DNA of 34,786 nt. Origin: an uncultured archaeon (GTDB taxonomy: Archaea > Iainarchaeota > Iainarchaeia > Iainarchaeales > GW2011-AR10). Below the pieces are notes generated by a model, which saw only the letters and a list, made by a program, of their open reading frames with translations, was not told where the DNA came from and ran no database searches. Location: NCBI GenBank assembly GCA_964362395.1, contig CAYIER010000001.1:1-34786 (forward strand). Direction: 5' to 3'. The translations under genes were made by a program, and so were the position numbers. Positions 1 to 14,077 of this stretch are shown here, one piece after another (the stretch's first letter is position 1; each line of letters starts with the position of its first letter).

Positions 1-85
1 ACTGGCAAAAGAACAATTAATTAATATTCACCTGCCAGTTTGTTACGCCGCATACATGTGCCATCTTCGATGACACGATAATATC
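1..85 (+). repeat. Dispersed palindromic repeat, copy D (module X truncated by window edge, plus module Y)
   Basis: ACTGGCAAAAGAA...TTCACCTGCCAGTTTGTT followed by GCATACATGTGCCATC-TTC-GATGACACGATAATAT; same layout as 12369-12465. Confidence 0.75.
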
Positions 86-125
86 AATATACTTTTTTTG
101 AATATAATGAAAAAACAGAAAAAAT

Positions 126-275
126 TCAGATCTGCATCGGCTGGTTTGGGGCCATTGTTTCCTTTGGAGCGAGCTGCTGCGCGTATTCCTTGAGGTGAGT
201 GATGACCTTTTCCAAAAGCACCCTGTTGCGGAGGCTCTTCTCTTTAACATACATTTTTGTCAGGTCGTTTAGCAT
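126..275 (-). CDS. Small hypothetical protein (about 49 aa)
   Basis: ATG at 275 within ORF 126..359; co-oriented downstream of hjc; no recognisable motif. Confidence 0.4.
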   Translation of the reverse strand: MLNDLTKMYVKEKSLRNRVLLEKVITHLKEYAQQLAPKETMAPNQPMQI

Positions 276-363
276 GATTTCGATTTCAATCAAGAAAAAG
301 CCACTAAAATAAAAAGTGCAAAAACGTTTTTTTAAACCCAACGGAAAATGCCAAGACACAAAT

Positions 364-771
364 TCAGGCTTCTAGCCTTGACTGCTCGCCCAAAACAACC
401 CTCAAGTCCAGCGCACAACCCTGCGCCTTTTTGAGCGAAATGACATAGTTTTTCCCTGCCTTGACAAAGTCTTTTGGGTTCAAAAACAAAAAACCCTTCC
501 TGGGCACTTTCCACACCACAAAAAACTCGGCATTGGATCGCCTTGCCCACCCAATCTGTCCATCCATCTGCTCGATTGAAAGGTTAAGGTAAGCAGCACC
601 CCATGCCTTGCACTCAAAAACAAGCTTTTTGGTCTTGCTTAACGCAACAATGTCAGGCATTGGCAATGAGTTCTTGCCGCTTCCGGCAACGCGCACCACA
701 GAGAGACCGCGGCCATAAAGCTCTTTTATAAGCTCCCGCTCAGCATTTGCGCCCTTCTGGTACCTCGTCAT
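364..771 (-). CDS. hjc: Archaeal Holliday junction resolvase Hjc
   Basis: KGANAEREL...VVRVAGSG...PDIVA...FECK, the Hjc PD-(D/E)XK signature. Confidence 0.93.
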   Translation of the reverse strand: MTRYQKGANAERELIKELYGRGLSVVRVAGSGKNSLPMPDIVALSKTKKLVFECKAWGAAYLNLSIEQMDGQIGWARRSNAEFFVVWKVPRKGFLFLNPKDFVKAGKNYVISLKKAQGCALDLRVVLGEQSRLEA

Positions 772-930
772 TAGCAAAAAAACCCTTTTTTGAACAAAAA
801 ACTGCTTTTCTGCAATATTAATATATGTTTTCTTTTATAAGTCTTAATAGGAATCAGGCTCAAAAGGAGCCATTAAAGGTTTAAAAAAAATCGATTGCAA
901 AAAAATTGTGTTTGCAATTAATTGTTTTTA

Positions 931-1194
931 ATGGAACAGGAAATTTTTTTGAACTTAAAAGTTGTTACGAATTCGAAGGAATTCAAAGTAACGGGTTTTG
1001 ACCCGCACACAAAAACTTTGAAAGTCAAAGTGAAAGCAAAACCCCAAAAGGGGCAAGCAAACAGGGAAATTGAACAAAAGCTCTCAGAGTTTTTTTCAAG
1101 CGACACAAAAATTGTTTTTGGACACAAAAGCAACAACAAAAAAATCCAAGTTCAAAGCGGCAAAAAAGCTTTGGGAAAAATAAAAAACCTTTAA
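931..1194 (+). CDS. DUF167/UPF0235 (YggU-like) protein
   Basis: LKVKVKAKPQKGQANREI...IVFGHKSNNK pattern. Confidence 0.85.
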   Translation: MEQEIFLNLKVVTNSKEFKVTGFDPHTKTLKVKVKAKPQKGQANREIEQKLSEFFSSDTKIVFGHKSNNKKIQVQSGKKALGKIKNL

Positions 1195-1243
1195 CACTCC
1201 TTTTAAAAAAAAACCTGATTCTTTTGGCAAATATCAAAAGGAG

Positions 1244-2590
1244 ATGATTAAATTGGCTAAAACTTACATTAGCGCAGTCAAATACTTAGTGAAAATAAAA
1301 TTCGAAATCCATGGGGTCGTAGACAAGCCGGACATCATTGGCGCAATCTTTGGGCAAAGCGAGGGGCTGTTAGGCGAAGAAATGGACCTAAAAGAACTCC
1401 AAAAAAACGGCAAAATCGGCCGAATTGAAATAAACCACGAACACATGCTAGGAAAAACGGTCGGCGAAATCCTTCTACCAAGCAACATGGACATGGCTGA
1501 AACCACAGTCCTTGCGGCAACGATTGAATCCGTGGAAAAAGTCGGCCCATACGAGTCACAATTCCAAATAGTTTCCCTAGAAGACACACGCACAGAAAAA
1601 AGGGACGAAATCAAAAAGCGGGCACAAGAACTGCTCAAAAAATTCAAGCAAACCATTGAGCCGGACACAGTTGAAATAACCGAATCAGTCCGCGAAGAGG
1701 CACGGACAGGCGACCTGCAGTTAATTGGCCCAGACAAGTTGGCGGCAGGCCCAGAAGTGCAGGCAAGCGAAGAAATAATCGTCGTCGAAGGGCGCGCAGA
1801 CGTGATAACACTGCTGAAAAACCACATAAAAAACGCAGTTGCAATGCAAGGCTCAACAATCCCAAAAACAATCCTTGAACTCTGCAAGACAAAAAAAGCA
1901 ACAGTGTTTGTTGACGGCGACCGCGGCGGGGAAATGATTGCAAGAAACTTTTTGCTTGCAAGCCGCGCAGAATTCATTGCACGCGCACCGGACGGCAAAG
2001 AAGTCGAAGAGCTCACAAGAAAAGAAATAATACAGTCACTGCGAAGACGGGTGACGCCACAAGAATTCACGGAACAGACACAAAAAGGGCCCCAGCAAAG
2101 GGGAATGCAAAGGTTCGAACCAAGGCCAAGAGAAGGCTTCCGCCAAGACAGAAGACCGCCATTTAGGCAAAGGCCAGACAACAGAAGGCCGTTTGGACAA
2201 AGACCAAGGCCCGAATTCGAGGAACAAAGAAGGTTTGACCACCCACGCATGGAACCACGAGAAGAAGCGGAGACGTTCACAAGAAAAGACCTCGAGCACC
2301 TTCCGACAAAAACGGAGCAAGACAAATTCGTCCCCATACTAAAAGAACTCAAAGGAAAAAGCACCGCAAAACTCTTTGACCACGAAATGAAAGAAATCGA
2401 CGAAGTCCAGGTAAAAAACCTTGTCGGGGAAATGTCAAAAAAGAAAGGGGTCAACGCAGTGGTCTTTGACGGAATAGTGACAAAAAGGCTCGTTGCGGCA
2501 GCAGACAAAAACGAAATAAAAATAATCGTCGGTGTAAGGAAAGGCGAACTGGAAAAATCAAACGCAAGAGTGCTGACTTTTGCGAATTAG
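1244..2590 (+). CDS. dnaG: Archaeal DnaG (TOPRIM protein, exosome-associated)
   Basis: GVVDKPDIIGAIFGQSEGLLG, VVEGRADV, FVDGDRGG, RAPDGKEVEEL, C-terminal FDGIVTKRL. Confidence 0.96.
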   Translation: MIKLAKTYISAVKYLVKIKFEIHGVVDKPDIIGAIFGQSEGLLGEEMDLKELQKNGKIGRIEINHEHMLGKTVGEILLPSNMDMAETTVLAATIESVEKVGPYESQFQIVSLEDTRTEKRDEIKKRAQELLKKFKQTIEPDTVEITESVREEARTGDLQLIGPDKLAAGPEVQASEEIIVVEGRADVITLLKNHIKNAVAMQGSTIPKTILELCKTKKATVFVDGDRGGEMIARNFLLASRAEFIARAPDGKEVEELTRKEIIQSLRRRVTPQEFTEQTQKGPQQRGMQRFEPRPREGFRQDRRPPFRQRPDNRRPFGQRPRPEFEEQRRFDHPRMEPREEAETFTRKDLEHLPTKTEQDKFVPILKELKGKSTAKLFDHEMKEIDEVQVKNLVGEMSKKKGVNAVVFDGIVTKRLVAAADKNEIKIIVGVRKGELEKSNARVLTFAN

Positions 2591-2638
2591 AACAACCGCT
2601 GCGCCAGTTGATACCCTTACGGGCACAAGCAACGCAGT

Positions 2639-2670
2639 TGTGTCCCGTCTAACGACGGGATGATAATATT
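2639..2670 (+). repeat. Dispersed repeat, copy F (module Y only)
   Basis: TGTGTCCCGTC-TAAC-GACGGGATGATAATATT, perfect 7-bp stem, downstream of dnaG. Confidence 0.75.
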
Positions 2671-2722
2671 TTTGAATTAAAATAAAAAAAAATATAATAA
2701 TGGGCTAAAACAATAAAATGGC

Positions 2723-3145
2723 TTATCTTCTGATTGCCCACTTTTTTCCTTTTTTTTCAGGCAAAACCCTTTCAGATTCCTCAATAGGCAAAACAAGGTC
2801 GCCTGTTTTGTAAATCAGCCAGCCGATGAACAAAACCGCAAGCCAAACCAAAACATTGGCAATCGGGCCAAGCAAAACACCCCAAAACTGGCGCATTGAA
2901 AGAGCTGACTGGTCAACCCGCACATAAAGGCCAGTGGACTTAAAAGCAATGTCCTGGCAATAAAAATGATCCACGCCAGAATCATGCAGGCAACTGTCAA
3001 CTTCCTTGAGATTGTCCCAAGAATTAAACATCAAAGCGCTTGCCTGAATGAAATACAAAAGCGCAGCAAACAAAACAAAGGCACCAATCAATTTAGGCAT
3101 GTGGACATCGCGCCCGCCAACCCTAAAAAACAATAATCTTCTCAT
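2723..3145 (-). CDS. Hypothetical membrane protein (2 predicted TM segments)
   Basis: Two hydrophobic stretches flanking a loop with two Cys; basic C-terminus. Confidence 0.7.
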   Translation of the reverse strand: MRRLLFFRVGGRDVHMPKLIGAFVLFAALLYFIQASALMFNSWDNLKEVDSCLHDSGVDHFYCQDIAFKSTGLYVRVDQSALSMRQFWGVLLGPIANVLVWLAVLFIGWLIYKTGDLVLPIEESERVLPEKKGKKWAIRR

Positions 3146-3377
3146 AGAAAAAAACCGTATTAAATAATGAAAACCAAGTATTTAAAGGTTTTGATGCAAA
3201 AAAGCCAAAAAAACACGCAAAACAAAAAAAAGCAAAAACACGACAACAGCATGATTTTTAACCATTCAACACCCAAAATAAATCTATTGCCAAACAAAAT
3301 CTGGCGGCACTTTGCCCCGCTAAAACGGGGCCATTGCCATCGCAGATGGCAGGAAAGTGCCGGCTGATTTTGCAGCC

Positions 3378-3448
3378 GCGGTTGTGGTTTAGTGGCAGAA
3401 TTCGACCTTGCCAAGGTCGGGACCCGGGTTCGATCCCCGGCAGCCGCA
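3378..3448 (+). tRNA. tRNA-Gly(GCC)
   Basis: Acceptor GCGGTTG/CAGCCGC, anticodon arm CGACC-TTGCCAA-GGTCG, T arm CCGGG-TTCGATC-CCCGG; no encoded CCA. Confidence 0.97.
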
Positions 3449-3463
3449 TAGCCGATTGCATCC

Positions 3464-3549
3464 GGCTGGTTTGCATACATGTACCGCCTTGCGGCGGGAC
3501 GGTAATATTTATGTCCCGTCGCAGACGGGGCGACGTATGTGGTGCCAGC
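3464..3549. repeat. Dispersed repeat, copy E: two inverted module-Y units sharing a central AATATT
   Basis: GGCTGGTTTGCATACATGTACCGCC-TTGC-GGCGGGACGGTAATATT then TATGTCCCGTC-GCA-GACGGGGCGACGTATGTGGTGCCAGC (reverse-complement module Y). Confidence 0.8.
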
Positions 3550-3562
3550 GGGCGCAAACGCT

Positions 3563-3634
3563 GGGCTTGTAGTCTAACGGCCAGGATGCATCGTTTACAC
3601 CGATGAGAAGGAGGTCCGATTCCTCCCAGGCCCA
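3563..3634 (+). tRNA. tRNA-Val(TAC)
   Basis: Acceptor GGGCTTG/CAGGCCC, anticodon arm CATCG-TTTACAC-CGATG, T arm GGAGG-TCCGATT-CCTCC. Confidence 0.92.
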
Positions 3635-3659
3635 TTTTTCAGACAGCGCTGGCAATTTT

Positions 3660-4277
3660 TTAAAACAAAACATTTTTGGCTTCAGACACAACTGCCGAAA
3701 AAACCTCTTTTTTTGGCATGGAAGCATCAATGATTTTAATGTTCTCTTTTGGCAGAATTTTTGGCAGCTGCAAAAACTTTTCGCGCGCCTTTTGCAAAAA
3801 AGCCTCCCTCTCAAAAACATCACGGGCACCACGTGCAGAGCACGCAATCCGTTTCAGCGCAAGCCTTGGGTCAATGTCCAAAACCAAAACAAGCCCGGGA
3901 ACAACCATCCCATCATGCATCTGCAAAATTTTTTCAACAGAAATTCCCTGAACCGACTGGTAAACAACAGTGGAATACTTGAAGCGGTCACACAAGACAA
4001 TTTTTCCTTCATTCAAAGCAGGCAAAATTTCGTGCTCCAAGTGAAACTCGCGATCCTTCACGTAAAGCTCCAAAAACTTTTGCGCATTGTTTTTTGGGCT
4101 TGACTCGCTTTTCAGCATTTCGCGAAGCTCTTTCCCAAAAGGGCTCTGCGAAGGCTCCGCTGTCAAAAAAACGCGCCCGGCAAAACCGTTTTTTTCCAAA
4201 AAAAGCTTCAGCTTTTTTGCCATCAAGGACTTGCCTGCGGCATCCAGCCCCTCAAAAACGACAAAATTTTTCTCCAA
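3660..4277 (-). CDS. tmk: Thymidylate kinase (probable TTG start at 4277)
   Basis: VFEGLDAAGKS P-loop, TAEP, VLCDRFKYSTVVYQ, LDIDP. Confidence 0.94.
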   Translation of the reverse strand: MEKNFVVFEGLDAAGKSLMAKKLKLFLEKNGFAGRVFLTAEPSQSPFGKELREMLKSESSPKNNAQKFLELYVKDREFHLEHEILPALNEGKIVLCDRFKYSTVVYQSVQGISVEKILQMHDGMVVPGLVLVLDIDPRLALKRIACSARGARDVFEREAFLQKAREKFLQLPKILPKENIKIIDASMPKKEVFSAVVSEAKNVLF

Positions 4278-4359
4278 GCAAAAACACCCGCAAAAACCAA
4301 TCAAAAGCAAATAAAGAGCAAAAACGTTTAAAAAAGCCTTCAAACAAAATAATCAATAC

Positions 4360-4572
4360 GCAGTTGTAGTCTAGCGGCAGGATAGGAGCCTTCCAACAAC
4401 TGGCACACCAGCAACAAATTGGCAAGTGAAAAATGGCTTAAATATTTCTTTTGCCATTTTGTTGGTTGACAGTGCGTACATGTCCCGCCTGTCGGCGGGG
4501 CGGCAATACTCAAATTTTAATAAAAAAATTGGAAGAAAGCTCTTGACCCGGGTTCGAATCCCGGCAGCTGCA
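4360..4572 (+). tRNA. tRNA-Gly(TCC) with 142-nt intron (4396-4537) at canonical position 37/38
   Basis: 5' exon GCAGTTG...GGAGCCTTCCA (4360-4395); 3' exon AGCTCTTGACCCGGGTTCGAATCCCGGCAGCTGCA (4538-4572); BHB has CTTC/GAAG 4-bp helix, CAA and AAA 3-nt bulges, CAA/TTG outer helix. Confidence 0.93.
4412..4510 (+). repeat. Dispersed repeat, copy A (X+Y) inside the tRNA-Gly intron
   Basis: CAACAAATTGGCAA...TTGCCATTTTGTTG then GCGTACATGTCCCGCC-TGTC-GGCGGGGCGGCAATACT; about 80% identical by hand alignment to the reverse complement of 5792-5888. Confidence 0.9.
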
Positions 4573-4620
4573 TTGGGATTATTTTGTGATTACGGTTTAC
4601 TGAAAAAAACAGGTGATTTT

Positions 4621-4944
4621 ATGGAATGCCCAATATGCAATAAGAAGATGGTTAAAGTAAAAGAACCGTACAGCTACGGAAATGTAAAGCTCGGAGAATT
4701 TGAAGCAGAAAAGTGCAACAACTGCAACGAAGTTTTTTTCACAGAAGAAGCCTCAGACAAAATAGACCAAAAAGCAAAAGAAACGGGGATTTGGGGAATC
4801 GGACAAAAAGCAAAAATTGGTTACTCAGGAAACTCGTTGATTTTAAGAATCCCGAAAAAAATTGCCGACTTTTTGCACTTAAAAAAAGGCGAGGAAATAT
4901 TTGTCAGGCCAGAAGGAGAGCACAAGTTAGTGGTTGAAACATAA
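4621..4944 (+). CDS. YgiT/MqsA-type zinc finger fused to AbrB/MazE/SpoVT DNA-binding domain (antitoxin-like)
   Basis: CPIC...KCNNCNEVFF plus GYSGNSLILRIPKKIADFLHLKKGEEI; AGGTGA RBS just upstream of ATG 4621. Confidence 0.85.
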   Translation: MECPICNKKMVKVKEPYSYGNVKLGEFEAEKCNNCNEVFFTEEASDKIDQKAKETGIWGIGQKAKIGYSGNSLILRIPKKIADFLHLKKGEEIFVRPEGEHKLVVET

Positions 4945-4978
4945 ACACAAAATAAAAGAATTATTTGAATTATAATAA

Positions 4979-5485
4979 ATGCCTGTTGAAAAAATGCCCG
5001 AAGGAAAATTTGTCGAGTTGGTTGATGCAAGCGACAAAGTGGTTGGAGCCGCGCCAAGAAAACTAATACACAAAAAGCCACTGCCGCACAGAGCAGTGCA
5101 TGTGTGGGTCTTTAACGCACTCGGCGAACTGTTTTTGCAAAAGCGCCCAAACACAATGGAATTGTGCCCGTCAATGTGGGATTCAAGCGTGGGCGAGCAC
5201 GTTGAAATCGGCGAGACATACAGGCAGGCGGCACAGCGGGGGCTAAAAGAAGAATTGCACATCCGTGGCACAAAACCAAAGCGGCTTTCAAAAAAACTCG
5301 TAAAGCACAAAAACGCGCACGAAATGATAACGCTGTTTGCAACAACCTTTGGCGAAAAAATTAAAATAAACAAAAAAGAGCTGGCGGGCGGAAAGTTTTT
5401 CTCAAAAGCCGAAATCATCGAACTTGTGAAAAAGAAAAAAACAACCCCTTTTTTTAACGTTTTTTTCAAGAAGTGTTTTAAATGA
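4979..5485 (+). CDS. NUDIX hydrolase, IPP isomerase type 1/YfcD-like
   Basis: LVDASDKVVG...HRAVHVWVFN...LFLQKR...WD..VGEHVEIGETYRQAAQRGLKEEL; lacks the catalytic Cys motif of true Idi1. Confidence 0.85.
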   Translation: MPVEKMPEGKFVELVDASDKVVGAAPRKLIHKKPLPHRAVHVWVFNALGELFLQKRPNTMELCPSMWDSSVGEHVEIGETYRQAAQRGLKEELHIRGTKPKRLSKKLVKHKNAHEMITLFATTFGEKIKINKKELAGGKFFSKAEIIELVKKKKTTPFFNVFFKKCFK

Positions 5486-5793
5486 AGCAAAATGAAATAC
5501 AAAAAATCGCGCTCGAGCGGATTTACCGCCTGTTTGAGCTTGCAGGAAAAATGCAGCCAAAAGAGCCGGAATTAAGCAAAAGATATGTTGCACTGGCAAG
5601 GAAAATAGGCTCAAAAAACAAGGCAACGATTCCATGGGGGCTAAAAAAAAAGTTCTGCAAAAAATGCGGGGCATTTTTGAAAAACGGGAAAAACTCAAAA
5701 GAAACCAAACAAGAGCCATTCCTTTTGGTCAAATGCATTGAATGCGGGTTTGAGAGGAAAATTTCGCTCAAAGAGCCAAAAACAGGCCAATAA
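5482..5793 (+). CDS. rnp4: RNase P protein component 4 (Rpp21)
   Basis: IALERIYRLFELA...RYVALARKIG...FCKKC...KCIECG zinc ribbon. Confidence 0.93.
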   Translation: MKQNEIQKIALERIYRLFELAGKMQPKEPELSKRYVALARKIGSKNKATIPWGLKKKFCKKCGAFLKNGKNSKETKQEPFLLVKCIECGFERKISLKEPKTGQ

Positions 5794-5890
5794 TATTACC
5801 GCCCCGCTGCAAAGCGAGGCATGTATGCGCTGCCAACCAACAAATTGGCAAAAGAAGCATTTCACTATTATTCACTTGCCAATTTGTTAC
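5792..5890 (-). repeat. Dispersed repeat, copy B (Y+X)
   Basis: AATATTACCGCCCCGCT-GCAA-AGCGAGGCATGTATGC then perfect 13-bp IR AACAAATTGGCAA (5839-5851)/TTGCCAATTTGTT (5876-5888); terminal AATATT overlaps the rnp4 stop codon. Confidence 0.9.
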
Positions 5891-5946
5891 AGGCGCAAAA
5901 GTTGACACAAAACAATAAATATATCAAAACACAATAATTATCCTTG

Positions 5947-6360
5947 ATGAACAAAGGGCAAGGGTCAATAGAATACCTGCTGATTTTGGGCGGAGTAATA
6001 ATGGTTGCGGTGATTGTAATTGCATTAATAGTCAACATTGCAACGCCGGCAGGCACGCAAACAAAAAATGACACAGCAGACCTGTTTTGCTCAAGAAAAC
6101 CCATCACGGGATGTTGTGGGCAAACGGTAGCCGTGCAAAGCACCACATACACATGCTATATGAAATCTGACAACACACTATGCGCAACACAGTCAGCAAC
6201 AAGCCTTGTTCATTGCTGCAATAGTTTAACTGACCTAGGAGAAACAGACTTGGATTGCGGCGGGACATGCGGAAAAACATGCATTTCCGGAAAAACCTGC
6301 ACCCAAAACTCAGACTGTATTTCAGGAACCTGCACAGGCACACCGCTCAAGTGTGCCTGA
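5947..6360 (+). CDS. Class III signal peptide (type IV pilin-like) protein with Cys-rich C-terminus
   Basis: KG|QGSIEYLLILGG + hydrophobic helix; ETDLDCGGTCGKTCISGKTCTQNSDCISGTC disulfide-rich motif. Confidence 0.85.
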   Translation: MNKGQGSIEYLLILGGVIMVAVIVIALIVNIATPAGTQTKNDTADLFCSRKPITGCCGQTVAVQSTTYTCYMKSDNTLCATQSATSLVHCCNSLTDLGETDLDCGGTCGKTCISGKTCTQNSDCISGTCTGTPLKCA

Positions 6361-6480
6361 AAACAAACCTTTAAAAGCTTTTTTTGACGGTTTTTTGTAA
6401 TAAGACTCTAATTATTGTGATTAGAGTTCGGTGCCTTTTTTGGCATCTGGAACAAAACTGCTCCGAGAGGAGGAAAACAA

Positions 6481-7038
6481 ATGGGCATATTTGACGTAGA
6501 GCCAGCGGTTCTGATAAAGGAAATGGCAAAAGATTTCAAGGGAAAATTCAAGCAGCCGCAGTGGGCAGAATGGGTAAAAACAGGAACCCACGCTGAGCGC
6601 GCACCCCAAAGCAAGGACTGGTTTTTTGAACGGGCAGCCTCAGTTCTGTACCGGGTGTACAAGGACGGGCCGGTTGGGACAGAAAGCTTAAGGACCTATT
6701 ACGGCGGAAGAAAAAAACGCGGAGTACGGCCGGAAAAGAAAAGAAAAAGCAGCGGAAAAATAATCCGGACCTGCCTGCAAACTTTGGAAAAAGAAGGGTT
6801 CATAAAAAAAGGGAAAACCGGCAGGGCAGTCACAAGCAAAGGTGAAAGTTACCTTAACAGGCTTGCAAAAGACGCAAAAGCAGTGCATGAAAAGGAAACA
6901 AAAGAAAAAGCCGAGCAAAATCGGCAAAAAGAAGCAGACGAACTGGCAAAACGGGCACAACAGGAAACAATAAAGCAAAGCGAAAAAAAAGAGGGATTCC
7001 GGGAACAAAAAAAGCCGCAACAAAAGCAGCAAAAATAA
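6481..7038 (+). CDS. rps19e: 30S ribosomal protein S19e with charged C-terminal extension
   Basis: PQWAEWVKTG.HAERAP...DWFFERAAS...YGGRKKRGVRP; GGAGG RBS. Confidence 0.96.
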   Translation: MGIFDVEPAVLIKEMAKDFKGKFKQPQWAEWVKTGTHAERAPQSKDWFFERAASVLYRVYKDGPVGTESLRTYYGGRKKRGVRPEKKRKSSGKIIRTCLQTLEKEGFIKKGKTGRAVTSKGESYLNRLAKDAKAVHEKETKEKAEQNRQKEADELAKRAQQETIKQSEKKEGFREQKKPQQKQQK

Positions 7039-7053
7039 CCGGGGCTTTTAAAA

Positions 7054-7338
7054 ATGGATGAAAAAAAACTGGGGGAATTAAGGGCACAAAAAGAAAAAGA
7101 AATGCAGACGCAAATGCAGATTGAAAGCCTTCTTCGAAAAACTTTGACAGATGAAGCAAGGCAGAGGCTAAACAACGTGAAGCTGGTAAAAAACGAGGTT
7201 TACCTCAAGGCACTGCAGCCGCTCTTTATGCTTATACAACAAGGGCAGGTGCAGGAAAAAATTTCCGACCAGGAATTAAAATCAATCCTTGAAAACATTA
7301 GCGGCTCAAAAAAAGAAATCAACATCAGGAGAAAATAG
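7054..7338 (+). CDS. PDCD5/TFAR19-family DNA-binding protein
   Basis: LTDEARQRLNNVKLVK...ISDQELKSIL...INIRRK; conserved position after rps19e. Confidence 0.9.
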   Translation: MDEKKLGELRAQKEKEMQTQMQIESLLRKTLTDEARQRLNNVKLVKNEVYLKALQPLFMLIQQGQVQEKISDQELKSILENISGSKKEINIRRK

Positions 7339-7339
7339 C

Positions 7340-7588
7340 ATGAGCAAAAACAGGACACAGGAAAAAAAAGAATTCCTCATTGCAAGCAGGAAAGCAATAG
7401 GTGCAAGCCTCACAAACGCCCCCGTCTGGGCAATGCAAAAGGCAGGGAAAAGGATCTGGAACAAAAAGCAGAAACGCCACTGGCGATCAACCGAGTTTGG
7501 AAAGCTGTTTGCAAAAAAGCAGGCAGAACAGGGAAAAGTCCGCAACAAAAAACGGGTTAAAAGCGGGTGGAAGAAAAGGAAAGATTAA
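7340..7588 (+). CDS. rpl39e: 50S ribosomal protein L39e, extended
   Basis: APVWAMQK...KRHWR motif; position before rpl31e. Confidence 0.85.
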   Translation: MSKNRTQEKKEFLIASRKAIGASLTNAPVWAMQKAGKRIWNKKQKRHWRSTEFGKLFAKKQAEQGKVRNKKRVKSGWKKRKD

Positions 7589-7590
7589 AA

Positions 7591-8016
7591 ATGAAGCAAA
7601 ACGAATTCGAATCAGTAATTTCTTTAAGAAAGGTTTTTGGTTTCCCGAAAACAAAAAGGACAAGGAAAGCAATCAATGAAATAAAGGCGTTCGCGTTAAA
7701 GCACGCAAAAAACGTGCAGGTGAGCATCTCAGAGGAAGTAAACCGGCTGCTTTTAGAAAACTCCCGAAACATCCCTAGGAAAATAAACGCGGTGCTTGTG
7801 AAAAACGACAAAAAAGTCACGGTTTATTTGCAGGGCGGAAAACAGTTAAAGGAAGACCAAAAAAGGGAAGCGGAAGAAAAGAAAAAGAAAGAGCAAAAAG
7901 AGAAGGAAGAAAAAGAAAAGCCAAAAGAAGAGGAAACGGAACAAAAAGAAAAGCTCAAAGACAAAAAAGAGAAAGAAAAAGCCGCAAAATCCCTTGAAAT
8001 GCAGGGGAGAAAATAA
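7591..8016 (+). CDS. rpl31e: 50S ribosomal protein L31e with K/E-rich tail
   Basis: ISLRK...PKTKRTRKAINEIKAF..KH...ISEEVN...PRKI; synteny. Confidence 0.9.
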   Translation: MKQNEFESVISLRKVFGFPKTKRTRKAINEIKAFALKHAKNVQVSISEEVNRLLLENSRNIPRKINAVLVKNDKKVTVYLQGGKQLKEDQKREAEEKKKKEQKEKEEKEKPKEEETEQKEKLKDKKEKEKAAKSLEMQGRK

Positions 8017-8679
8017 ATGAACATTTTCAAGACAACAATCAATTCAAGCCCTTTTGTCGGGGTGTTTTCCTGCGCAAGCGAAAAATTCGCCCTCGCCCCA
8101 ATGTCCACGCCGCAAAAAAAAGTCGACGCAATCGAAGAACACCTCCAAGTGAAAGTGGTCAGGGCATCGCTTGCAAACTCTTCACTGTTGGGCGTACTGT
8201 GCGTGCTGTTTGAAGACAAAATAATCATTTCTGAAATAGTCGAGGAAAGAGAAAAAAAATTCCTTGAAAAAAACGGCCTAAAAGTAAAGCAAATAGACGG
8301 CTATACTGCAATTGGAAACCTTATTTCACTCAACAAAAATGGCGGAATTGCAAGCACGCTGCTTTCACCAAAGAATGTAAAGGAAATAGAGGAATTTTTT
8401 GGCGTGAAACTGGTGCAAAAAGACTTTGCGCACTCAAACCTTGCTGGCGCAGCCGCACTCGCAACAAATAAAGGCTTTATCGTGCACCCAAATATCAGCA
8501 AGGCAGAATTTATGGAAATGCAAAAAATATTCCAAGTCGAAGGGAACCCCACAACCGCAAACTATGGCGACTCATTTATCGGAAACGACGTTGTTGCAAA
8601 CTCAAAAGGGGCAATGGTCGGCGAAATAACAACCACGTTTGAACTGACAAGAATTGACGAAGCACTGAGGGGAAACTGA
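8017..8679 (+). CDS. eif6: Translation initiation factor 6 (aIF6)
   Basis: SPFVGVF, TAIGNLI, ATNKGFIVHP, TANYG, VANSKGAMVG..TT.FELTRIDEAL. Confidence 0.95.
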   Translation: MNIFKTTINSSPFVGVFSCASEKFALAPMSTPQKKVDAIEEHLQVKVVRASLANSSLLGVLCVLFEDKIIISEIVEEREKKFLEKNGLKVKQIDGYTAIGNLISLNKNGGIASTLLSPKNVKEIEEFFGVKLVQKDFAHSNLAGAAALATNKGFIVHPNISKAEFMEMQKIFQVEGNPTTANYGDSFIGNDVVANSKGAMVGEITTTFELTRIDEALRGN

Positions 8680-8680
8680 C

Positions 8681-8881
8681 ATGAAAGAAAAGGAAACAAA
8701 GGAAAAAAACTTTGAAATAAATGGAACATTCATTGAAAAAAAGAGCAAAAAAACGTTCACAAAAACAATCAGCGCACAAAACAAAAACAGGGCAAAAGAA
8801 AAACTGCTCACGGTTTTTGGCTCAAAGCAGGGGATAAAGAGAAGGTGCATTTTTATTGAAGACATCAAAGAGGAAAACTAG
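8681..8881 (+). CDS. rplX: 50S ribosomal protein L18Ae/LX
   Basis: FEINGTF...FTKTISA...AKEKL...FGSKQGIKR..IFI; synteny eif6-rplX-pfdA. Confidence 0.9.
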   Translation: MKEKETKEKNFEINGTFIEKKSKKTFTKTISAQNKNRAKEKLLTVFGSKQGIKRRCIFIEDIKEEN

Positions 8882-8884
8882 CAT

Positions 8885-9334
8885 ATGGCAGAAAAAAAAG
8901 TGCAGATGACACAAGAACAGCTGTTCTCTGCGTTCGCCGGAGAAAACCAGCGCCTCGAAGACCTCAACCAGCGAATCAATATGCTCATAATGGGCTTAAA
9001 TGAAATCACCATGGCACTTTTGTCAATGGATGCAATAAAAAAAGAGAAAGACAAAATCATGGTGCCGCTTGGCGCGGGAATTTTCCTGCAGGCACAAACA
9101 GAGGACAACGAAAACGTGGTCTTTGCGCTCGCAGGGGAAGTAATGAAAACAAAAAAACTCGAAGAGGCAAAACAAGAGATTGAAAAAAGAAAGGAATCGC
9201 TTGAAAAACTGCTTGAAAACACAAAAAGAGAGCACCACAGGACTGCCACAAACGTAAACGCGCTGACAGAAGTCATCAGGAAAGGGCAGGAATTTATTCA
9301 ACAGCAAAGAATGGGGACGATAAAAGGGCTTTAA
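8885..9334 (+). CDS. pfdA: Prefoldin alpha subunit
   Basis: Coiled coils flanking IMVPLGAGIFLQA...VVFALAGEV..KK.LEEA. Confidence 0.9.
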   Translation: MAEKKVQMTQEQLFSAFAGENQRLEDLNQRINMLIMGLNEITMALLSMDAIKKEKDKIMVPLGAGIFLQAQTEDNENVVFALAGEVMKTKKLEEAKQEIEKRKESLEKLLENTKREHHRTATNVNALTEVIRKGQEFIQQQRMGTIKGL

Positions 9335-10546
9335 ATGTTTGACTTTTTAAAGAAAAAAGTTTCCGTTTTTGCCGAAAAAATAAAGCAGACAATTGAAAAA
9401 AAACAAGGGCAAACCGTGCAACAAGAACCGGCTGCACAAGCGCCAAAGCAAACCATTTTAGAACAACAGCCGCCAATTGCAAAGCAGGCAAAGCAACAGG
9501 AACACGAAGGGCAGCCGGCAAAAACACAGCCGAATGCAAAAACAGGGGAACTGAAAACCACAAGGGCGGATGAACCAGCCAAAAAAGAAATTCCAGCTGC
9601 AATTCACAAGGAAAAACCGCAACACAAAATACAGATAGTTCAGGATGACAAGCGCGAACTTGCGGCAAAAGTCGGCATCACAAAAAAACTCAAAGGGCTG
9701 TTTACTGGGACAATAACTGTTTCAAAACAAGACATCAAACACTTTTTGGAAGAATTCGAGCTGGCACTCCTTGAAGCAGACGTTGAAGCAGGGACGGCCC
9801 GCGAAATTACAGAAAAAATCGGAAAAGACCTGGAAGGAAAACAAGTCCCCACAGGCACTGATGTTTCAGGGTTTTTAAAAGACGAAATCAAAAAAGTGCT
9901 CCTGCAAATAATGCAGACAAAAAAAATCGATTTTTTGAAGGAAACGGAAAAGAAAAAACCGTTTGTCGTGCTGTTTCTTGGGCCAAACGGCGCCGGAAAA
10001 ACAACCACCATTGCAAAAATCGCAAACTATTTGAAGGAAAATGGAAAAACCACAGTACTAGCCGCGGCAGACACCTTTCGGGCGGCATCCATTGAACAGC
10101 TGGAAACGCATGCAAGCGCAATCGGCGTAAAAGTTATAAAGCAAAAATACGGGGCAGACCCCGCAGCGGTCGCATTTGACGCAGTGGCTTATGCAAAAGC
10201 AAAAAACCTGGACACCGTGCTGATTGATTCGGCCGGAAGGCAGGAAACAAACAAAAACCTCTTAAAGGAACTCAAAAAAATTGAGCGCATCGCAAAGCCT
10301 GACCTCAAAATATTCATCGGCGAATCATACGCAGGCCAAGCGCTTTTAAGCCAGGGAAGCGAATTTGACAAAGAACTTGACTTAGACGGGTTTATTCTGA
10401 CAAAAATGGATGTTGACTCAAAGGGGGGAACCGCCATTTCCCTGCTGCACGTGCTCAAAAAGCCCATAATTTTTGCCGGAACAGGGCAAAGCTATGATGA
10501 CCTGGCGGAATTTGACCCAAAATTCATCGTGGACCGCATAATTTGA
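9335..10546 (+). CDS. ftsY: SRP receptor FtsY
   Basis: MFDFLKKK start, ALLEADV, GPNGAGKTTTIAK, DTFRAA, DSAGR, TKMD, GTGQSYDDL. Confidence 0.97.
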   Translation: MFDFLKKKVSVFAEKIKQTIEKKQGQTVQQEPAAQAPKQTILEQQPPIAKQAKQQEHEGQPAKTQPNAKTGELKTTRADEPAKKEIPAAIHKEKPQHKIQIVQDDKRELAAKVGITKKLKGLFTGTITVSKQDIKHFLEEFELALLEADVEAGTAREITEKIGKDLEGKQVPTGTDVSGFLKDEIKKVLLQIMQTKKIDFLKETEKKKPFVVLFLGPNGAGKTTTIAKIANYLKENGKTTVLAAADTFRAASIEQLETHASAIGVKVIKQKYGADPAAVAFDAVAYAKAKNLDTVLIDSAGRQETNKNLLKELKKIERIAKPDLKIFIGESYAGQALLSQGSEFDKELDLDGFILTKMDVDSKGGTAISLLHVLKKPIIFAGTGQSYDDLAEFDPKFIVDRII

Positions 10547-10609
10547 GGAAAAAAACCAGAATCATTAAAAAAGCTAATGCAGGAAAAATAACAAAAGAGG
10601 TGTATTTTA

Positions 10610-10897
10610 GTGAAAGTAAGCGAACTACAATCAAAAACCCCCGTGCCGGAACTGGTTGGGGAAATTGTTTCAATCGGCGAGCCAAGAGAATTTGCAAACG
10701 AAAGAGGAAGCGGCCGCGTATGCGACGCAGCACTCAAGGACAAATCAGGCGAAATAAAGATCTCCCTATGGAACGAGCAGATAGACCAGGTAAAAGAAGG
10801 CGACAAAGTAAAAATAGAAAATGGCTGGTGCAGCGAATTTAAGGGCCAAAAACAGGTAAGCACAGGAAAAATGGGAAAACTTACAGTGGTGAAGTAA
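10610..10897 (+). CDS. Single OB-fold ssDNA-binding protein (SSB/RPA-like)
   Basis: EPREF...VCDAALKDKSGEIKISLWNEQ...GDKVKIENG; GAGGTG RBS before GTG. Confidence 0.9.
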   Translation: MKVSELQSKTPVPELVGEIVSIGEPREFANERGSGRVCDAALKDKSGEIKISLWNEQIDQVKEGDKVKIENGWCSEFKGQKQVSTGKMGKLTVVK

Positions 10898-10901
10898 ACT
10901 T

Positions 10902-11552
10902 TTAAAGGTCAGGATGCCTCATGTGAAGCCTGGTCACGTCACCTTTCCCTTTCCCACCCAATTTTGCCATCTCGCCCTTCACAAACCCGTGAAAGTGGCG
11001 CTCGCTGACATTCTGTTTGGTTAAGACCCCAAGTTGAACCAAATGGTTCAGGTCAAACTCCAAACTAATAAATTGCCTTTCAGAAACTCTTTTCACAAGG
11101 TCATAAGAAGGGTGATTCAGCACATTCTTGATGTGCAAGCGAAGACGGTCTGCATTCGCACGGTAAATTCCGCCAAAAGAAACAACCCAGAGCGTGTTTG
11201 CGTCATGGTTATGCCAGTCCCCAAGACGCAGCTTCAAAAAAATTTTTCCCGCCAAAGACTCCTCTGGAGTGATAGTTTTTACCTCGATTTTTTCCGGCTG
11301 GCCACGAATCAGCTTAAGTTTATTGACAAAATCATAGCCCTTATTTGAATGCGGCATTTTTGACCAATGGGGGTGCATTGACTGCAAAAATTCCTCGCCC
11401 TTTTGCCCCCACCACCTTGCACGCCTTGAAGCAGCCAGCCTTGCAAGTTCACGGTCAGACCTAAGCACTTGCAGAAGCCTGTTTGTCTGGGGGTCCATGG
11501 CATGTTTTACCCGTTCAATTTCAGGAATCTTCCTTTTGCCGTGCGGCCGCAT
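10902..11552 (-). CDS. Orphan PD-(D/E)XK restriction-endonuclease-like protein
   Basis: GQKGEEFL...NKGYDF...KIEVKT catalytic-type spacing; basic N-terminus. Confidence 0.65.
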   Translation of the reverse strand: MRPHGKRKIPEIERVKHAMDPQTNRLLQVLRSDRELARLAASRRARWWGQKGEEFLQSMHPHWSKMPHSNKGYDFVNKLKLIRGQPEKIEVKTITPEESLAGKIFLKLRLGDWHNHDANTLWVVSFGGIYRANADRLRLHIKNVLNHPSYDLVKRVSERQFISLEFDLNHLVQLGVLTKQNVSERHFHGFVKGEMAKLGGKGKGDVTRLHMRHPDL

Positions 11553-11758
11553 TCTACCAACAAACACGCATTTGGTTAATAATATGATTTTGGCTGCAAT
11601 TTGGCCCAAACCCCACCCAAAGATAACTTTAAAAACGGTTTAAGGCACATATATACTAGGATTGGGTCAATACTTGCTGATTTTTCTTACTCTTTTTTCA
11701 AAGCGTATAAAAAAAGGCTGCTTGATTCAACTCGTCAATTAAAGGAGGAATAATTTAA

Positions 11759-12136
11759 ATGACATTCAGTAATTTCAACCAAAATAGGTTCCAAAAGCCC
11801 ATTCCGGTAAAGGAAGGGGAAGAATATGACGTTACAATTGAGAACGTTGGAGAAAAAGGAGATGGCATAGCAAAAGTAAAAGGCTATGTGATAATCGTCC
11901 CGCAAACAAAAAAGGGCGAAAGAGTCAGAATAAAGGTAAACGCTATCCGGGGAAAAGTTTCATTCGGCGAAGTCATAGAAAGGCTCGAAGGAGAAACAGA
12001 GGAAGGGGAAGGCGAACCAGAAGCGGAAACGGAAGAAAAAAACGAAGAAAGCTCTGAGGGCTCAGATGACTCCGACAACATAGAGGACAGCGGCGAAGAC
12101 ACGGAGGACAGCTTCGACGAAGACGAGGAGAAGTGA
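11759..12136 (+). CDS. Single TRAM-domain RNA-binding protein with acidic tail
   Basis: PVKEGEEYDVTIENVGEKGDGIAKVKGYVIIVPQTKKGERV; GGAGG RBS. Confidence 0.93.
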   Translation: MTFSNFNQNRFQKPIPVKEGEEYDVTIENVGEKGDGIAKVKGYVIIVPQTKKGERVRIKVNAIRGKVSFGEVIERLEGETEEGEGEPEAETEEKNEESSEGSDDSDNIEDSGEDTEDSFDEDEEK

Positions 12137-12143
12137 AAGCAGC

Positions 12144-12356
12144 ATGGACGAAGACAAAGAACTCGAAATGCTGATGAAGCCATCAGAAGAGTTAAGGTTA
12201 AAGCTCCTAAAGCAAGAGTTTCGCCTCCGAAAAAAACAGCCGGAAGCATGGACAAAAACAAAATTCAGGAAATACGCGAACTTTAGGACAAAAAGGAAAG
12301 AGCCACTCACAGAAGAAATCCAAGTGGCAAAAATAATGGAAAAAAAAGTGGCTTAA
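12144..12356 (+). CDS. Small basic hypothetical protein
   Basis: ATG 7 nt after the TRAM gene stop; 70 aa; no motif recognised. Confidence 0.5.
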   Translation: MDEDKELEMLMKPSEELRLKLLKQEFRLRKKQPEAWTKTKFRKYANFRTKRKEPLTEEIQVAKIMEKKVA

Positions 12357-12368
12357 GCCGGTTGCGTT

Positions 12369-12465
12369 AACACTTTGGCAAAGAAACAACCCTTTTTTAT
12401 TCACTGCCAAAGTGTTGCAGGCTGGTTCGCAGACGTGCCCCATCTTAGGATGAAACGATAATATT
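12369..12465 (+). repeat. Dispersed repeat, copy G (X+Y)
   Basis: Perfect 12-bp IR AACACTTTGGCA/TGCCAAAGTGTT with internal AAGAA..TTCAC; then GGCTGGTTCGCAGACGTGCCCCATC-TTAG-GATGAAACGATAATATT. Confidence 0.82.
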
Positions 12466-12580
12466 TTTTAATTAATGCACTAAAAAGCGCTTTTTTTCTT
12501 AACTAATTGTCAAATGAGTTTAAATTATGCCCAAGCCTGCCAGCTATTTAATTGTTTTTCTTCAATAATTTTGTGTTTCT

Positions 12581-13930
12581 ATGAGCCTTGGAGAGCAGTT
12601 AAGGAAGGCTATTGAGCGCCTGCGGAACAGTTCAGGGCTTGACCGTGAAACCGTAAAAGAGGCAGTCAAAGACATCCAGCGGGCACTTATTGGTTCCGAT
12701 GTTTCGGTTGACCTTGTATTAAAACTAAGCAAAGAGATAGAGGACGCGGCATTCGTTGACCTCCCAATGGGAATCAACCGCCGCGAGCACATACTCAAAA
12801 CAACCTATGACTTGCTTGCAGAATTGTTGGGTGGCTCGCCGCAGCCGCCACAAAAGCCAAAAAAAATACTTTTGATCGGGCTCTTTGGGTCCGGAAAAAG
12901 CACAACTTGCGGAAAGCTGGCAAAATGGTACGCAAAGCGCGGGTTAAAAGTGGGGTTGATTGCTGCGGACACTTTTCGCGCGGCAGCGGTTGAACAATTG
13001 CGGCAGGTGGCAGAAAAGGCAAATGTGGAATTTTTTGGGCTGACTGCAGAAAAAAATGCAGCAAAAGTTGTAAGGGAGGGGCTTAAAAAATTTGAACAAT
13101 TTGACCTGATAATCTGTGATTCGGCGGGAAGAAGTGCACTTGACAGCGTGCTTGTAAAAGAAATAAAGGAAATCAACTCTGTTTTTTCGCCTGACCAGCG
13201 CTGGCTTGTCCTTGGCGCAGACATTGGGCAGGCTGCAAAAAAGCAGGCAAAGGCATTCCATGAAAGCGTGCAGGTGAACGGCGTCATAATCACAAAGCTT
13301 GATGGCTCCGCAAAGGGCGGCGGGGCGCTTGCAGCGTGCCGTGAAACAAACTCGCCGGTTTACTTTGTCGGATTGGGAGAAAAACTTGATGACTTCCAGG
13401 AATTTGATGCAACACGCTACCTCAGCAGAATAATGGGCTACGGCGACCTAGCGGCGCTTCTAGAAAAGGCAAAAGAAATACAGGAAGAGTCAGGACTTGG
13501 CATTGAGGGAATGCTTGGCGGCGAATTCAACCTTGATATTTTTTACAAGCAACTAGTGTCTGCACGAAAGCTCGGGCCGCTAAGCAAGGTCGCGGAAATG
13601 ATGGGGCTTGGCTCGCAGGTCCCAAAAGAAATGCTTGAAGTCGGCGAAGAAAAGCTTGAAGGATTTGCGGCAATGATGGATTCAATGACAAAAAAAGAAA
13701 AACAAAACCCCGAGCTGTTGAACAAAAGCAGGATTGCGCGCATTGCAAAAGGAAGCGGGAAAACACAGGAAGACGTGCGCGAACTCCTGAAAAACTACAG
13801 GACAACCGCGAAAATGTTTTCACAATTCAAAAACATTGACGAAAAAAAACTCGAAAAAGGCGGAATGCAGGGGCTCTTGAAAAAATTCGGCGGGCTTGGA
13901 AAGAAAAAAAAGAAAATAAAATTCAGGTGA
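12581..13930 (+). CDS. srp54: Signal recognition particle protein SRP54
   Basis: DIQRALI..DV, GLFGSGKSTT, DTFRAAA, DSAGR, TKLDGSAKGGGAL; M domain with DSMT..E..NP...SRIARIAKGSG. Confidence 0.97.
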   Translation: MSLGEQLRKAIERLRNSSGLDRETVKEAVKDIQRALIGSDVSVDLVLKLSKEIEDAAFVDLPMGINRREHILKTTYDLLAELLGGSPQPPQKPKKILLIGLFGSGKSTTCGKLAKWYAKRGLKVGLIAADTFRAAAVEQLRQVAEKANVEFFGLTAEKNAAKVVREGLKKFEQFDLIICDSAGRSALDSVLVKEIKEINSVFSPDQRWLVLGADIGQAAKKQAKAFHESVQVNGVIITKLDGSAKGGGALAACRETNSPVYFVGLGEKLDDFQEFDATRYLSRIMGYGDLAALLEKAKEIQEESGLGIEGMLGGEFNLDIFYKQLVSARKLGPLSKVAEMMGLGSQVPKEMLEVGEEKLEGFAAMMDSMTKKEKQNPELLNKSRIARIAKGSGKTQEDVRELLKNYRTTAKMFSQFKNIDEKKLEKGGMQGLLKKFGGLGKKKKKIKFR

Positions 13931-13943
13931 ATAAATGAATAAA

Positions 13944-14040
13944 AACATTAATGGACAGCCCCCGTCAAAGACGGGGCAAAAGCGCCACAACAAATTGGCG
14001 AAAGAAAATTGGGCAAATTGTTCAATTGCCAATTTGTTGC
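13944..14040 (-). repeat. Dispersed repeat, copy C (Y-like hairpin + X)
   Basis: CCCCGTC-AAA-GACGGGG then CAACAAATTGGC (13988-13999)...GCCAATTTGTTG (14028-14039). Confidence 0.85.
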
Positions 14041-14077
14041 AGATTTAGCGGGAGAAAATAAATTAAAATTCAGGTGA

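Follow-up and report, generated by a model that had tools for sequence, protein, structure and literature searches.

The subject of this study is a tRNA-Gly(UCC) gene at positions 4360-4572 of a 34,786-nt stretch of DNA from an uncultured archaeon (contig CAYIER010000001.1, assembly GCA_964362395.1); the whole stretch is referred to below as the window. The gene is split by a 142-nt intron at position 37/38 (4396-4537). Apart from its first base and its last ~7, about 8 nt in all, the intron is filled by one copy of a repeat found at 98 loci in the genome. We consider it probable that this arrangement arose when structured, non-autonomous DNA repeats inserted, one nested in the other, into a short intron that was already present, the intron being the host of the repeat and not its source. 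The genome (G000) is Iainarchaeota-like, with 1.14 Mb in 146 contigs, 44% GC and 90% completeness. Relatives of its SRP54 protein share 58-71% identity and come mostly from metagenome-assembled genomes (MAGs); three are Candidatus Iainarchaeum, two of those from groundwater. The organism-labelled DNA runs containing the stretch are groundwater metagenomes.

Exon 1 (4360-4395, +; tRNA positions 1-37) and exon 2 (4538-4572, +; A38 to the discriminator A73) were defined by a hand parse, by ARAGORN on the spliced sequence and by alignment with orthologues from 10 relatives. By hand, all arms are present: acceptor stem GCAGTTG/CAGCTGC, D arm with a loop one base short of standard, anticodon stem GGAGC/GCTCT, T arm and discriminator A. 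The 7-nt anticodon loop is CTTCCAA, with anticodon TCC. Excision of the intron in silico gave a 71-nt tRNA-Gly(tcc) in ARAGORN, and the 10 orthologues align exon to exon with an identical anticodon loop. These three lines, and the splicing motif described below, bear out the preliminary description of this DNA, which had read a 142-nt intron with a canonical bulge-helix-bulge (BHB) at 37/38. The gene was not detected by a default ARAGORN scan or by Rfam at the gathering score. When introns were allowed, ARAGORN found the interval 4360-4572 and named it Trp(cca), i(37,140). We rejected that name, with its 140-nt intron, because it would need a 9-nt anticodon loop.

The intron (4396-4537, +) was delimited by hand parse and ARAGORN, and its splicing motif was read directly. 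A central helix of 4 bp pairs CUUC (4390-4393) with GAAG (4532-4535). It is flanked by two 3-nt bulges, CA|A at 4394-4396 on the 5′ side and AA|A at 4536-4538 on the 3′ side. The outer helix is 3 bp, CAA (4397-4399) with UUG (4529-4531), and the anticodon stem lies on the other side. Two 3-nt bulges, a 4-bp helix and flanking helices, the elements of an hBHBh′ motif, are thus all found by reading, the outer helix being weak. The free-energy fold prefers a continuous 7-bp register, CUUCCAA/UUGGAAG, so that the BHB is one of two registers; the whole precursor folds with z = -5.4. The boundary can be shifted by one base (4396-4537 is equivalent to 4397-4538) because an A stands at both ends. In a profile search of the genome contigs, an EndA domain (PF01974, 100 bits) was encoded on contig C46 and RtcB (PF01139, 562 bits) on C2. 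Judged from these features, this should be an archaeal BHB intron at the canonical position and a predicted substrate of the cell's own EndA and RtcB.

The assembly across the gene is sound. A contig from another sample (run X2) covers 3300-4832 with 2 differences, and one from another study (X4) covers 3300-6400 with 26 differences, none of them an indel in the intron.

Within the intron the repeat starts with a small hairpin (h0), which is followed by a 53-nt palindrome (module A), a GC hairpin (B) and, last, an A-rich tail. The h0 hairpin, CTGG-CACA-CCAG at 4400-4411 (+), is the head of the unit and stands 4 nt from the 5′ splice site; it is recognized by folding and covariation. Module A (4412-4464, +) folds as a 14-bp stem with an A/T-rich loop. 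The stretch 4472-4509 (+), defined by folding, unit alignment and covariation, holds in turn the 3′ strand of a helix P1, a conserved linker, hairpin B (4482-4501) and a conserved 3′ flank (4502-4509). P1 joins GTGC (4472-4475) to the complementary GCAC (4403-4406), a pairing obtained for this copy by reading. The A-rich tail (4510-4531, +) ends in the TTG of the outer BHB helix; intron positions 2-139 align by blastn to C5:20635-20771 with 72.7% identity, which supports the assignment of the tail.

The closest paralogue of the intron copy, also consisting of h0, A and B, lies on the opposite strand at 5793-5905 and was recovered by the repeat search, blastn and nhmmer. It sits between the gene for the RNase P subunit Rpp21 (5482-5793) and a class III signal-peptide gene, both named by Pfam. 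In the repeat search the two arms, 4440-4508 and 5794-5862, were 81% complementary over 69 ungapped nt. By blastn against the 1.14-Mb genome, intron positions 1-112 matched C1:5904-5794 with 78.6% identity over 112 columns (E 4e-20), and a second genome search gave 82% (E 1.1e-20). The similarity of roughly 80% to 5792-5888 that had been aligned by hand is therefore upheld at E ~1e-20, and the fear that a formal alignment would find it insignificant was unfounded. Five further intergenic loci had been claimed at the same time. Iterated nhmmer found more copies in the window, at 2-84, 2629-2669, 3472-3508, 12369-12464 and 13960-14039, and a covariance model added one at 3505-3564 (-). Rfam, searched over window 1-15000 with E up to 5, gave no credible match to any repeat copy, and its best hit on the intron was a tmRNA fragment over the T arm; at the gathering score Rfam reported two tRNAs only in the window. 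By reading, no C or D box and no K-turn was seen in the intron or in hairpin B.

Across G000, iterated nhmmer gave 145 hits, which merged to the 98 loci: 38 with A and B, 16 with A only or partial and 44 with B only or partial. The core unit is ~60 nt long and comprises h0, a linker, and GC hairpin B, whose two flanks are conserved; the A-rich tail usually follows. Module A lies between h0 and B and is also found alone elsewhere, for example in the tRNA-Ala(UGC) intron. Its 13-14-nt arms form 57 covarying arm pairs genome-wide, a few rows being chance or duplicate, and its flanks read TA..TA or CA..TG. Units also form inverted doublets, at 3449-3562 and in the Cys intron, again with conserved flanks to hairpin B. 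A separate 26-nt motif occurs at 21 places in G000 with ≤3 mismatches, 13 of them identical (e.g. C2:6532, C6:11935 and C117:2075). It often stands just 3′ of a unit tail and represents a promoter-like signal common to these places or else a conserved element of its own.

The h0 loop can pair with the linker immediately 5′ of B. These two segments vary in concert between subfamilies and give a pseudoknot-like helix. Among 21 units, which are paralogues and from which the structure itself was derived, 96.6% of the cells are paired and 11 of 17 pairs are changed on both sides. The covariation score was 0.513, compared with 0.187 in shuffles (0 of 500 reached it), and controls slid out of register paired in 31-40% of cells. 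Helix 1 (h0) has changes on both sides in 4 of 5 pairs, helix 2 (the pseudoknot-like one) has compensatory changes in 4 of 4, and in helix 3 (B) 97.6% of the cells are paired. Such pairing is expected of single-stranded DNA as much as of RNA. Wobble pairs in 42 parsed B stems (G.T 12, A.C 9) showed no strand bias and were uninformative.

Introns at the same site of the tRNA-Gly(UCC) gene in relatives differ in length by steps. Three genomes of the same order have no intron at 37/38 (G002, G030, G032), three have an intron of 13-18 nt (G040, G043, G059) and two of 42 nt (G031, G035). Three of these five short or 42-nt introns (G040, G043, G059) end in GAAG plus two letters, like that of G000; in G035 the GAAG is followed by three letters and in G031 it stands five letters from the end. 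In the same family, G003 and G004 have introns of 105-109 nt containing h0 and B and lacking module A. The congener G001 also has a long intron; its B hairpin is of another subfamily, and the contig breaks off within the intron. Judged on loose contig ends, a relative in run X9 has an intron that ends with a B module and a much shorter tail, and in a related strain of run X11 the units at the 3′ end of tRNA-Gly(GCC) and the 5′ end of tRNA-Val belong to another subfamily. The Gly-UCC intron region of the X11 organism differs too. The orthologous tRNA-Met intron contains h0 and B in G000 and h0, A and B in G001, a clean 50-nt indel. G001 lacks both the copy at 5793-5905 and that at 13960-14039; its spacers there are ~27 nt or less. 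The first proposal of the preliminary description, that an element landed in a short pre-existing intron, agrees with the introns of 0, 13-18 and 42 nt, with the core-only introns of 105-109 nt and with the tRNA-Met indel.

The core unit is abundant in one family of genomes only. The covariance model of the core unit (R1) matched 66 times in G000, 86 in G001, 13 in G002, 22 in G003 and 41 in G004. Under stricter filters, 8 of the other 55 genomes of the order had 1-6 matches and 47 had none, so that at the R1 threshold 13 of 60 genomes carry units. This is a family-level expansion with widely varying copy number. Several contig ends fall inside repeat copies (C8 of G001; C12, C23, C24 and C36 of G000). 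Since contigs of both MAGs end in this way, the repeat family causes assembly breaks and the copy numbers are lower bounds.

The repeats are associated with tRNA genes. Within 100 nt of a tRNA lie 22 of the 98 loci, compared with 7.5 ± 2.6 when loci were placed at random in non-coding DNA (maximum 16 in 500 trials, on a crude open reading frame map). The remaining 76 are more than 100 nt from any tRNA, and the loci overlapping tRNAs are not raised over random non-coding placement (7 versus 4.3 ± 2.0). ARAGORN predicts 43 tRNAs in G000, many with long introns. Modules are present in 7 of the 19 predicted introns of at least 30 nt (Gly-UCC, Ala-CGC, Ala-UGC, Pro-CGG, Cys, Met and Ser-CGA), and three further introns hold variant B hairpins identified by eye. 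A 308-nt intron was left out of these and all other counts; ARAGORN places it in a tRNA-Ala(ggc) at window 30738-31141 (-), in coding-like DNA, and the call is probably false.

The geometry of the association is strict. At tRNA ends and splice sites the h0 head lies 0-3 nt from the exon. Forward units follow directly on the 3′ ends of tRNA-Gly(GCC) (in the window), Leu-CAG, Met, Ser-CGA and Gln-CUG. Reversed units stand directly before the 5′ ends of Val-UAC (in the window), Met, Pro-UGG, Ser-GGA, Thr-UGU and Ile. Units are forward at 5′ splice sites and reversed at the 3′ splice site of the Cys intron. One case is the spacer between tRNA-Gly(GCC) and tRNA-Val(UAC), whose 113 nt are exactly two core units placed tail to tail (3449-3562, both strands; R1 matches 3449-3508 + and 3505-3564 -), each h0 head abutting one tRNA end. 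G002 is a complete genome with 13 units: 5 directly adjoin a tRNA end or splice site, and a further 4 are within about 100 nt of a tRNA. A degenerate 3′ half of tRNA-Met was also seen in G000 (C68, ~1096-1140, -), ~140 nt downstream of the intact gene and directly before a second unit; acceptor-like fragments before tandem units occur in G002 as well (L062, L070).

Two regulatory roles were considered for the unit and rejected. Many tRNA genes in G000 have no unit and show ordinary TATA-like upstream regions and T-run ends. By reading, the unit-free genes have TTTAAA-type boxes ~25-35 nt upstream and the A-rich tail has none, which speaks against a promoter role of the tail. Full copies do contain T-runs on the reverse strand, but orientation relative to flanking genes gives no consistent role as a terminator: on the tail side 42 genes are in the same and 27 in the opposite orientation, a weak bias toward the downstream gene, and on the head side the numbers are 32 and 38.

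Anatomy, copy numbers, covariation, distribution, empty sites and linkage to tRNAs are observed; the order of events, the movement as DNA and the reason for tolerance we infer as follows. The intron would owe its length to one complete copy of a DNA repeat that is specific to the lineage, rich in hairpins and non-autonomous. The repeat would itself be made of two independently moving parts, the ~60-nt core unit and the 53-nt module A inside it. An old short intron at 37/38 would have come first, a core unit would have been gained in the lineage of the family, and module A would have been gained in the lineage of G000; this is the simplest order for the graded intron lengths found at one site in relatives. 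Two properties may make the copy tolerable: each of its modules folds up by itself, so that the BHB stays free, and in its present orientation the copy puts no run of 5 or more T into the pre-tRNA. The family would spread as DNA and favour tRNA exon boundaries, with the h0 head always beside the exon. Movement as DNA is suggested by the occurrence of both orientations, the units before tRNA 5′ ends being reversed and those after 3′ ends forward. That the repeats are selfish DNA is suggested by the lineage-limited expansion, the empty sites, the turnover of subfamilies at the same tRNA ends, the two orientations and the mirror-image placement on two strands.

Several observations weigh against nested insertion of non-autonomous repeats. 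The exact abutment of units to exons is left unexplained by it, and a covarying pseudoknot is more typical of functional RNA. Between G000 and G001 the tRNA-Met units are 86% identical in the intron (61/71) and 91% in the trailer (51/56), compared with 68-73% for coding DNA (up to 80% in shorter stretches), and both B stems, that of the intron and that of the trailer, differ by a compensatory pair. This conservation looks like purifying selection or gene conversion and not like neutral junk. REPIN-like populations are reported, in published abstracts, to keep their consensus over long times and across species; conservation alone consequently does not decide between selfish DNA and functional RNA. 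No mobilizing enzyme for the repeats was found in searches of the 90%-complete genome. The ends of the only IS200-type insertion sequence (IS), on C117, were rejected as the source of the repeat: its left end and right-end hairpin have no other copies, and only the adjoining unit is repeated. Co-occurrence was rejected as well, for the presence of the Y1 transposase does not track the units across the 60 genomes. DDE transposases were rejected as partners of module A, as none of the three DDE_Tnp_1 genes lies between two arms spaced 100-4000 nt from each other; one arm pair on C37 lies ~1 kb downstream of a DDE transposase. Given the completeness of the genome, the absence of an autonomous element with module A ends is not proven. 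No family-wide target-site duplication was detected, the flank repeats scoring 7.54 compared with 7.56 for mismatched flank pairs. Finally, the comparisons between genomes rest on MAGs, ARAGORN calls and the crude open reading frame map.

The strongest alternative is possible, in our judgement with a minor share of the probability: the core unit could be a functional, cis-acting RNA module of pre-tRNAs, present in introns and trailers and as its complement in leaders. Its long stems would guide or protect processing, or a small RNA would be released; selection would maintain the module, and the intergenic copies would be by-products. The covariation in three helices, the pseudoknot among them, the conservation of the two tRNA-Met units with a compensatory change in each B, and the placement of heads 0-3 nt from tRNA ends or splice sites all argue for it. 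So does the predicted folding of pre-tRNA-Met with its flanks, in which a long leader-trailer helix is stacked on the acceptor stem (z = -5.76), and, weakly, that of the Gly-Val spacer, predicted to form a single long hairpin whose base touches both tRNAs (z = -2.03). Yet no BHB was seen on reading the Met leader-trailer helix, and the repeats lack an Rfam match. A single family spans copy numbers of 13 to 86, and no unit is found in 47 of the 55 other genomes of the order. Many tRNA genes have no unit, 76 of 98 copies are more than 100 nt from a tRNA, the unit subfamily at a given tRNA end differs between close strains, and reversed copies would yield a complementary RNA and not the same motif.

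It is doubtful that the unit formed by h0, the pseudoknot and B is a previously undescribed element specialized for tRNA-exon boundaries. Its RNA would be freed by EndA at splice sites and by the 3′ end-maturing nuclease in trailers, and its insertion beside exon ends would create or enlarge BHB introns. If this were true, the arrival of archaeal tRNA introns would be directly testable in this lineage.

A further alternative, which we regard as unlikely, is that the repeats are REP/REPIN-like (repetitive extragenic palindrome) or PATE-like (palindrome-associated transposable element) elements, moved as single-stranded DNA hairpins by a Y1 (HUH) transposase. The covarying pairing upstream of B would then correspond to the pairing of guide and cleavage site in IS608-type elements. 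G000 does have a Y1_Tnp gene, its sole one (C117:1593-2018; L025:1474-1899; 96 bits; IS200 type), with a repeat unit directly against its 3′ end. The hairpins with conserved flanks, the 4-5-nt covarying pairing just 5′ of B and a family consensus that persists across species, as reported for REPINs in published abstracts, are all consistent with this mechanism. The gene lies between SLOG/LOG-like and KH-domain genes and has hairpin ends of its own. However, these ends are, as stated, without other copies. It scores 103 bits with the IS200 model NF033573 (cut-off 55), but only 43.1 with the REP-associated model NF047646 (cut-off 80). In the passages of PMC6006769 consulted, only the ordinary IS200 subclass is reported in Archaea. 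Y1 is present in 19 of the 60 genomes. Among the five unit-rich genomes only G000 has a full gene, G003 and G004 have fragments, and none was found in G001 (60% complete) or in the complete genome G002 with its 13 units. Conversely, no units were found at the threshold used in the Y1-rich genomes G005 (5 matches), G044 and G056. TnpB (PF07282) was not found in the G000 assembly.

The second proposal of the preliminary description made the excised intron RNA the source or vehicle of the repeat family; we consider it very unlikely. EndA and RtcB would release unit RNAs, from introns or trailers, and re-ligate them into BHB-like sites, from where they would be copied back to DNA, the introns seeding the family. 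Unit heads do coincide with processing cuts, namely 5′ splice sites and tRNA 3′ ends; 7 of the 19 long introns contain modules, in a genome that encodes both EndA and RtcB; and many intergenic copies are bounded by A-runs. Against this, insertion of sense RNA cannot account for the reversed units found before tRNA 5′ ends and at the 3′ splice site of Cys, and the family as a whole occurs in both orientations. A reverse transcriptase (RVT_1, PF00078) was not found in the 90%-complete assembly, the copy at 5793-5905 has T-rich and not A-rich flanks in its own orientation, intergenic copies are without exon or BHB remnants, and overlap with tRNAs is no higher than random. The search thus provided no support for the proposal.

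That the long intron is an assembly artefact, or its similarity to the repeat a matter of chance, can be dismissed as wholly improbable: repeats are known to break MAG assemblies, and contig C8 of G001 does stop within its own Gly-UCC intron, but the contigs of X2 and X4, from another sample and another study, span the gene of G000 without an intron indel, contrary to the misassembly that had been feared, and the similarity stands at E ~1e-20.

The other copies in the window have varied surroundings. A copy with A and B is at the start (2-84, +; nhmmer). At 2629-2669 (+) there is a B module, with h0 and an alternative small hairpin upstream that replaces module A, as seen by nhmmer and reading. 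A full copy of h0, A and B lies upstream of SRP54 (12369-12464, +; nhmmer). A variant copy (13960-14039, -; nhmmer, Pfam) is located between SRP54 and a gene resembling type IV prepilin peptidase. It is flanked by a 41-nt direct repeat of 78% identity (13908-13948 and 14055-14095), which duplicates the junction of the SRP54 stop and the ribosome-binding site of the next gene; G001 has a single junction there.

Some neighbouring features were recorded as well. The gene 3′ of the tRNA (4622-4944, +) encodes a C-terminal domain like that of MazE/AbrB-type antitoxins (Pfam, 26.2 bits); its longest open reading frame call starts at 4426 and over-extends into the tRNA-Gly intron. Two pairs of direct repeats ~940 nt apart with 73-76% identity, 32678-32772/33619-33713 and 32862-32911/33797-33846, suggest a pair of tandem paralogous genes. 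Elsewhere in the genome, three of four tyrosine recombinase genes are within ~1 kb of a tRNA (C52:154-654, Thr-UGU; C62:1794-2174, Cys; C97:2662-3147, Asn), with open frames of 367-402 aa, which suggests ordinary integrated elements.

By what route tRNA introns of archaea arise and lengthen is not settled. Insertion of a repeat, as proposed for the Gly-UCC intron, may be one way in which they grow. This lineage presents a graded series at one site, namely no intron, a short intron, a core unit, and a core unit with a palindrome, and a living family of ~100 copies together with empty sites in relatives makes the step of intron growth visible and datable. The strict head-to-exon geometry is unusual among repeat families and may reflect either structure-directed insertion or a role in pre-tRNA handling. 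On the practical side, the repeats break MAG assemblies and cause standard tRNA finders to miss or misname genes.

Several known systems resemble parts of this one. Long introns at the canonical position that carry a structured RNA are familiar from Euryarchaeota, where the tRNA-Trp intron carries a box C/D RNA. The Gly-UCC intron is likewise a long BHB intron at that position with a structured content, but by reading it has no C/D boxes, and it holds a dispersed repeat and not a single-copy guide RNA. In the order itself, the tRNA-Trp(CCA) genes of G053 (L018) and G006 (L019) have introns of 119-131 nt with box C/D-like words; a tRNA-Trp gene was not found in G000 (90% complete). In archaeal rRNA operons, inverted repeats around 16S and 23S form processing stems with BHB motifs. 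Inverted unit copies around tRNA genes, with predicted long helices at the base, are comparable, whereas the tRNA-Met helix has no BHB on reading and both flanks are occupied in some tRNA genes only.

Among mobile elements, miniature inverted-repeat transposable elements (MITEs) share with the G000 family small size, lack of coding, multiple copies, palindromic ends (module A) and presence or absence between relatives. The G000 family differs in that neither an autonomous partner sharing its ends nor a consistent target-site duplication was found, and in that the arms covary as in a selected hairpin. It also differs from PATE derived from IS200/IS605, as the repeat is distinct from the ends of the resident IS and no TnpB domain was found. 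Bacterial REP/REPIN elements and their REP-associated tyrosine transposases (RAYTs) show several similarities: short extragenic hairpins with conserved flanks in tens to hundreds of copies, inverted doublets, a consensus kept across related species and, in G000, a single-copy Y1 gene beside a repeat. In contrast to them, the Y1 of G000 falls short of the RAYT cut-off, Y1 and the repeats do not occur together across genomes, and the units contain a third, pseudoknot-like helix and are associated with tRNA exons. The REP tag is named as GTAG or CGTC in the part of PMC3733652 consulted, and RAYT subclasses are not reported from Archaea in the consulted passages of PMC6006769.

Sharing of intron sequence is known from Thermoproteales, where related sequences across different tRNA genes have been read as large-scale intron transposition (Fujishima 2010, as cited in the passages seen of PMC4090602 and 10.64898/2026.10.13.758758). 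The preliminary description knew of no described case; in view of these shared intron families that statement needs narrowing. A search of the literature (titles, abstracts and passages) gave no archaeal BHB intron made of a genome-wide intergenic repeat. As in Thermoproteales, introns of different tRNA genes in one genome share sequence in G000, and in both cases gain or growth of the intron is thought to occur at the DNA level under the constraint of the BHB. Unlike those families, that of G000 lies mainly between genes (98 loci), borders tRNA 5′ and 3′ ends as well, has a modular build whose palindrome can move alone, and resides in a DPANN host. By analogy, the nearest precedent would be the intron sharing of Thermoproteales, and the nearest mechanistic analogues would be REPINs and MITEs. 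The G000 repeat is set apart from all of them by its mainly intergenic family, its modular nesting, its exon-abutting geometry and its DPANN host.

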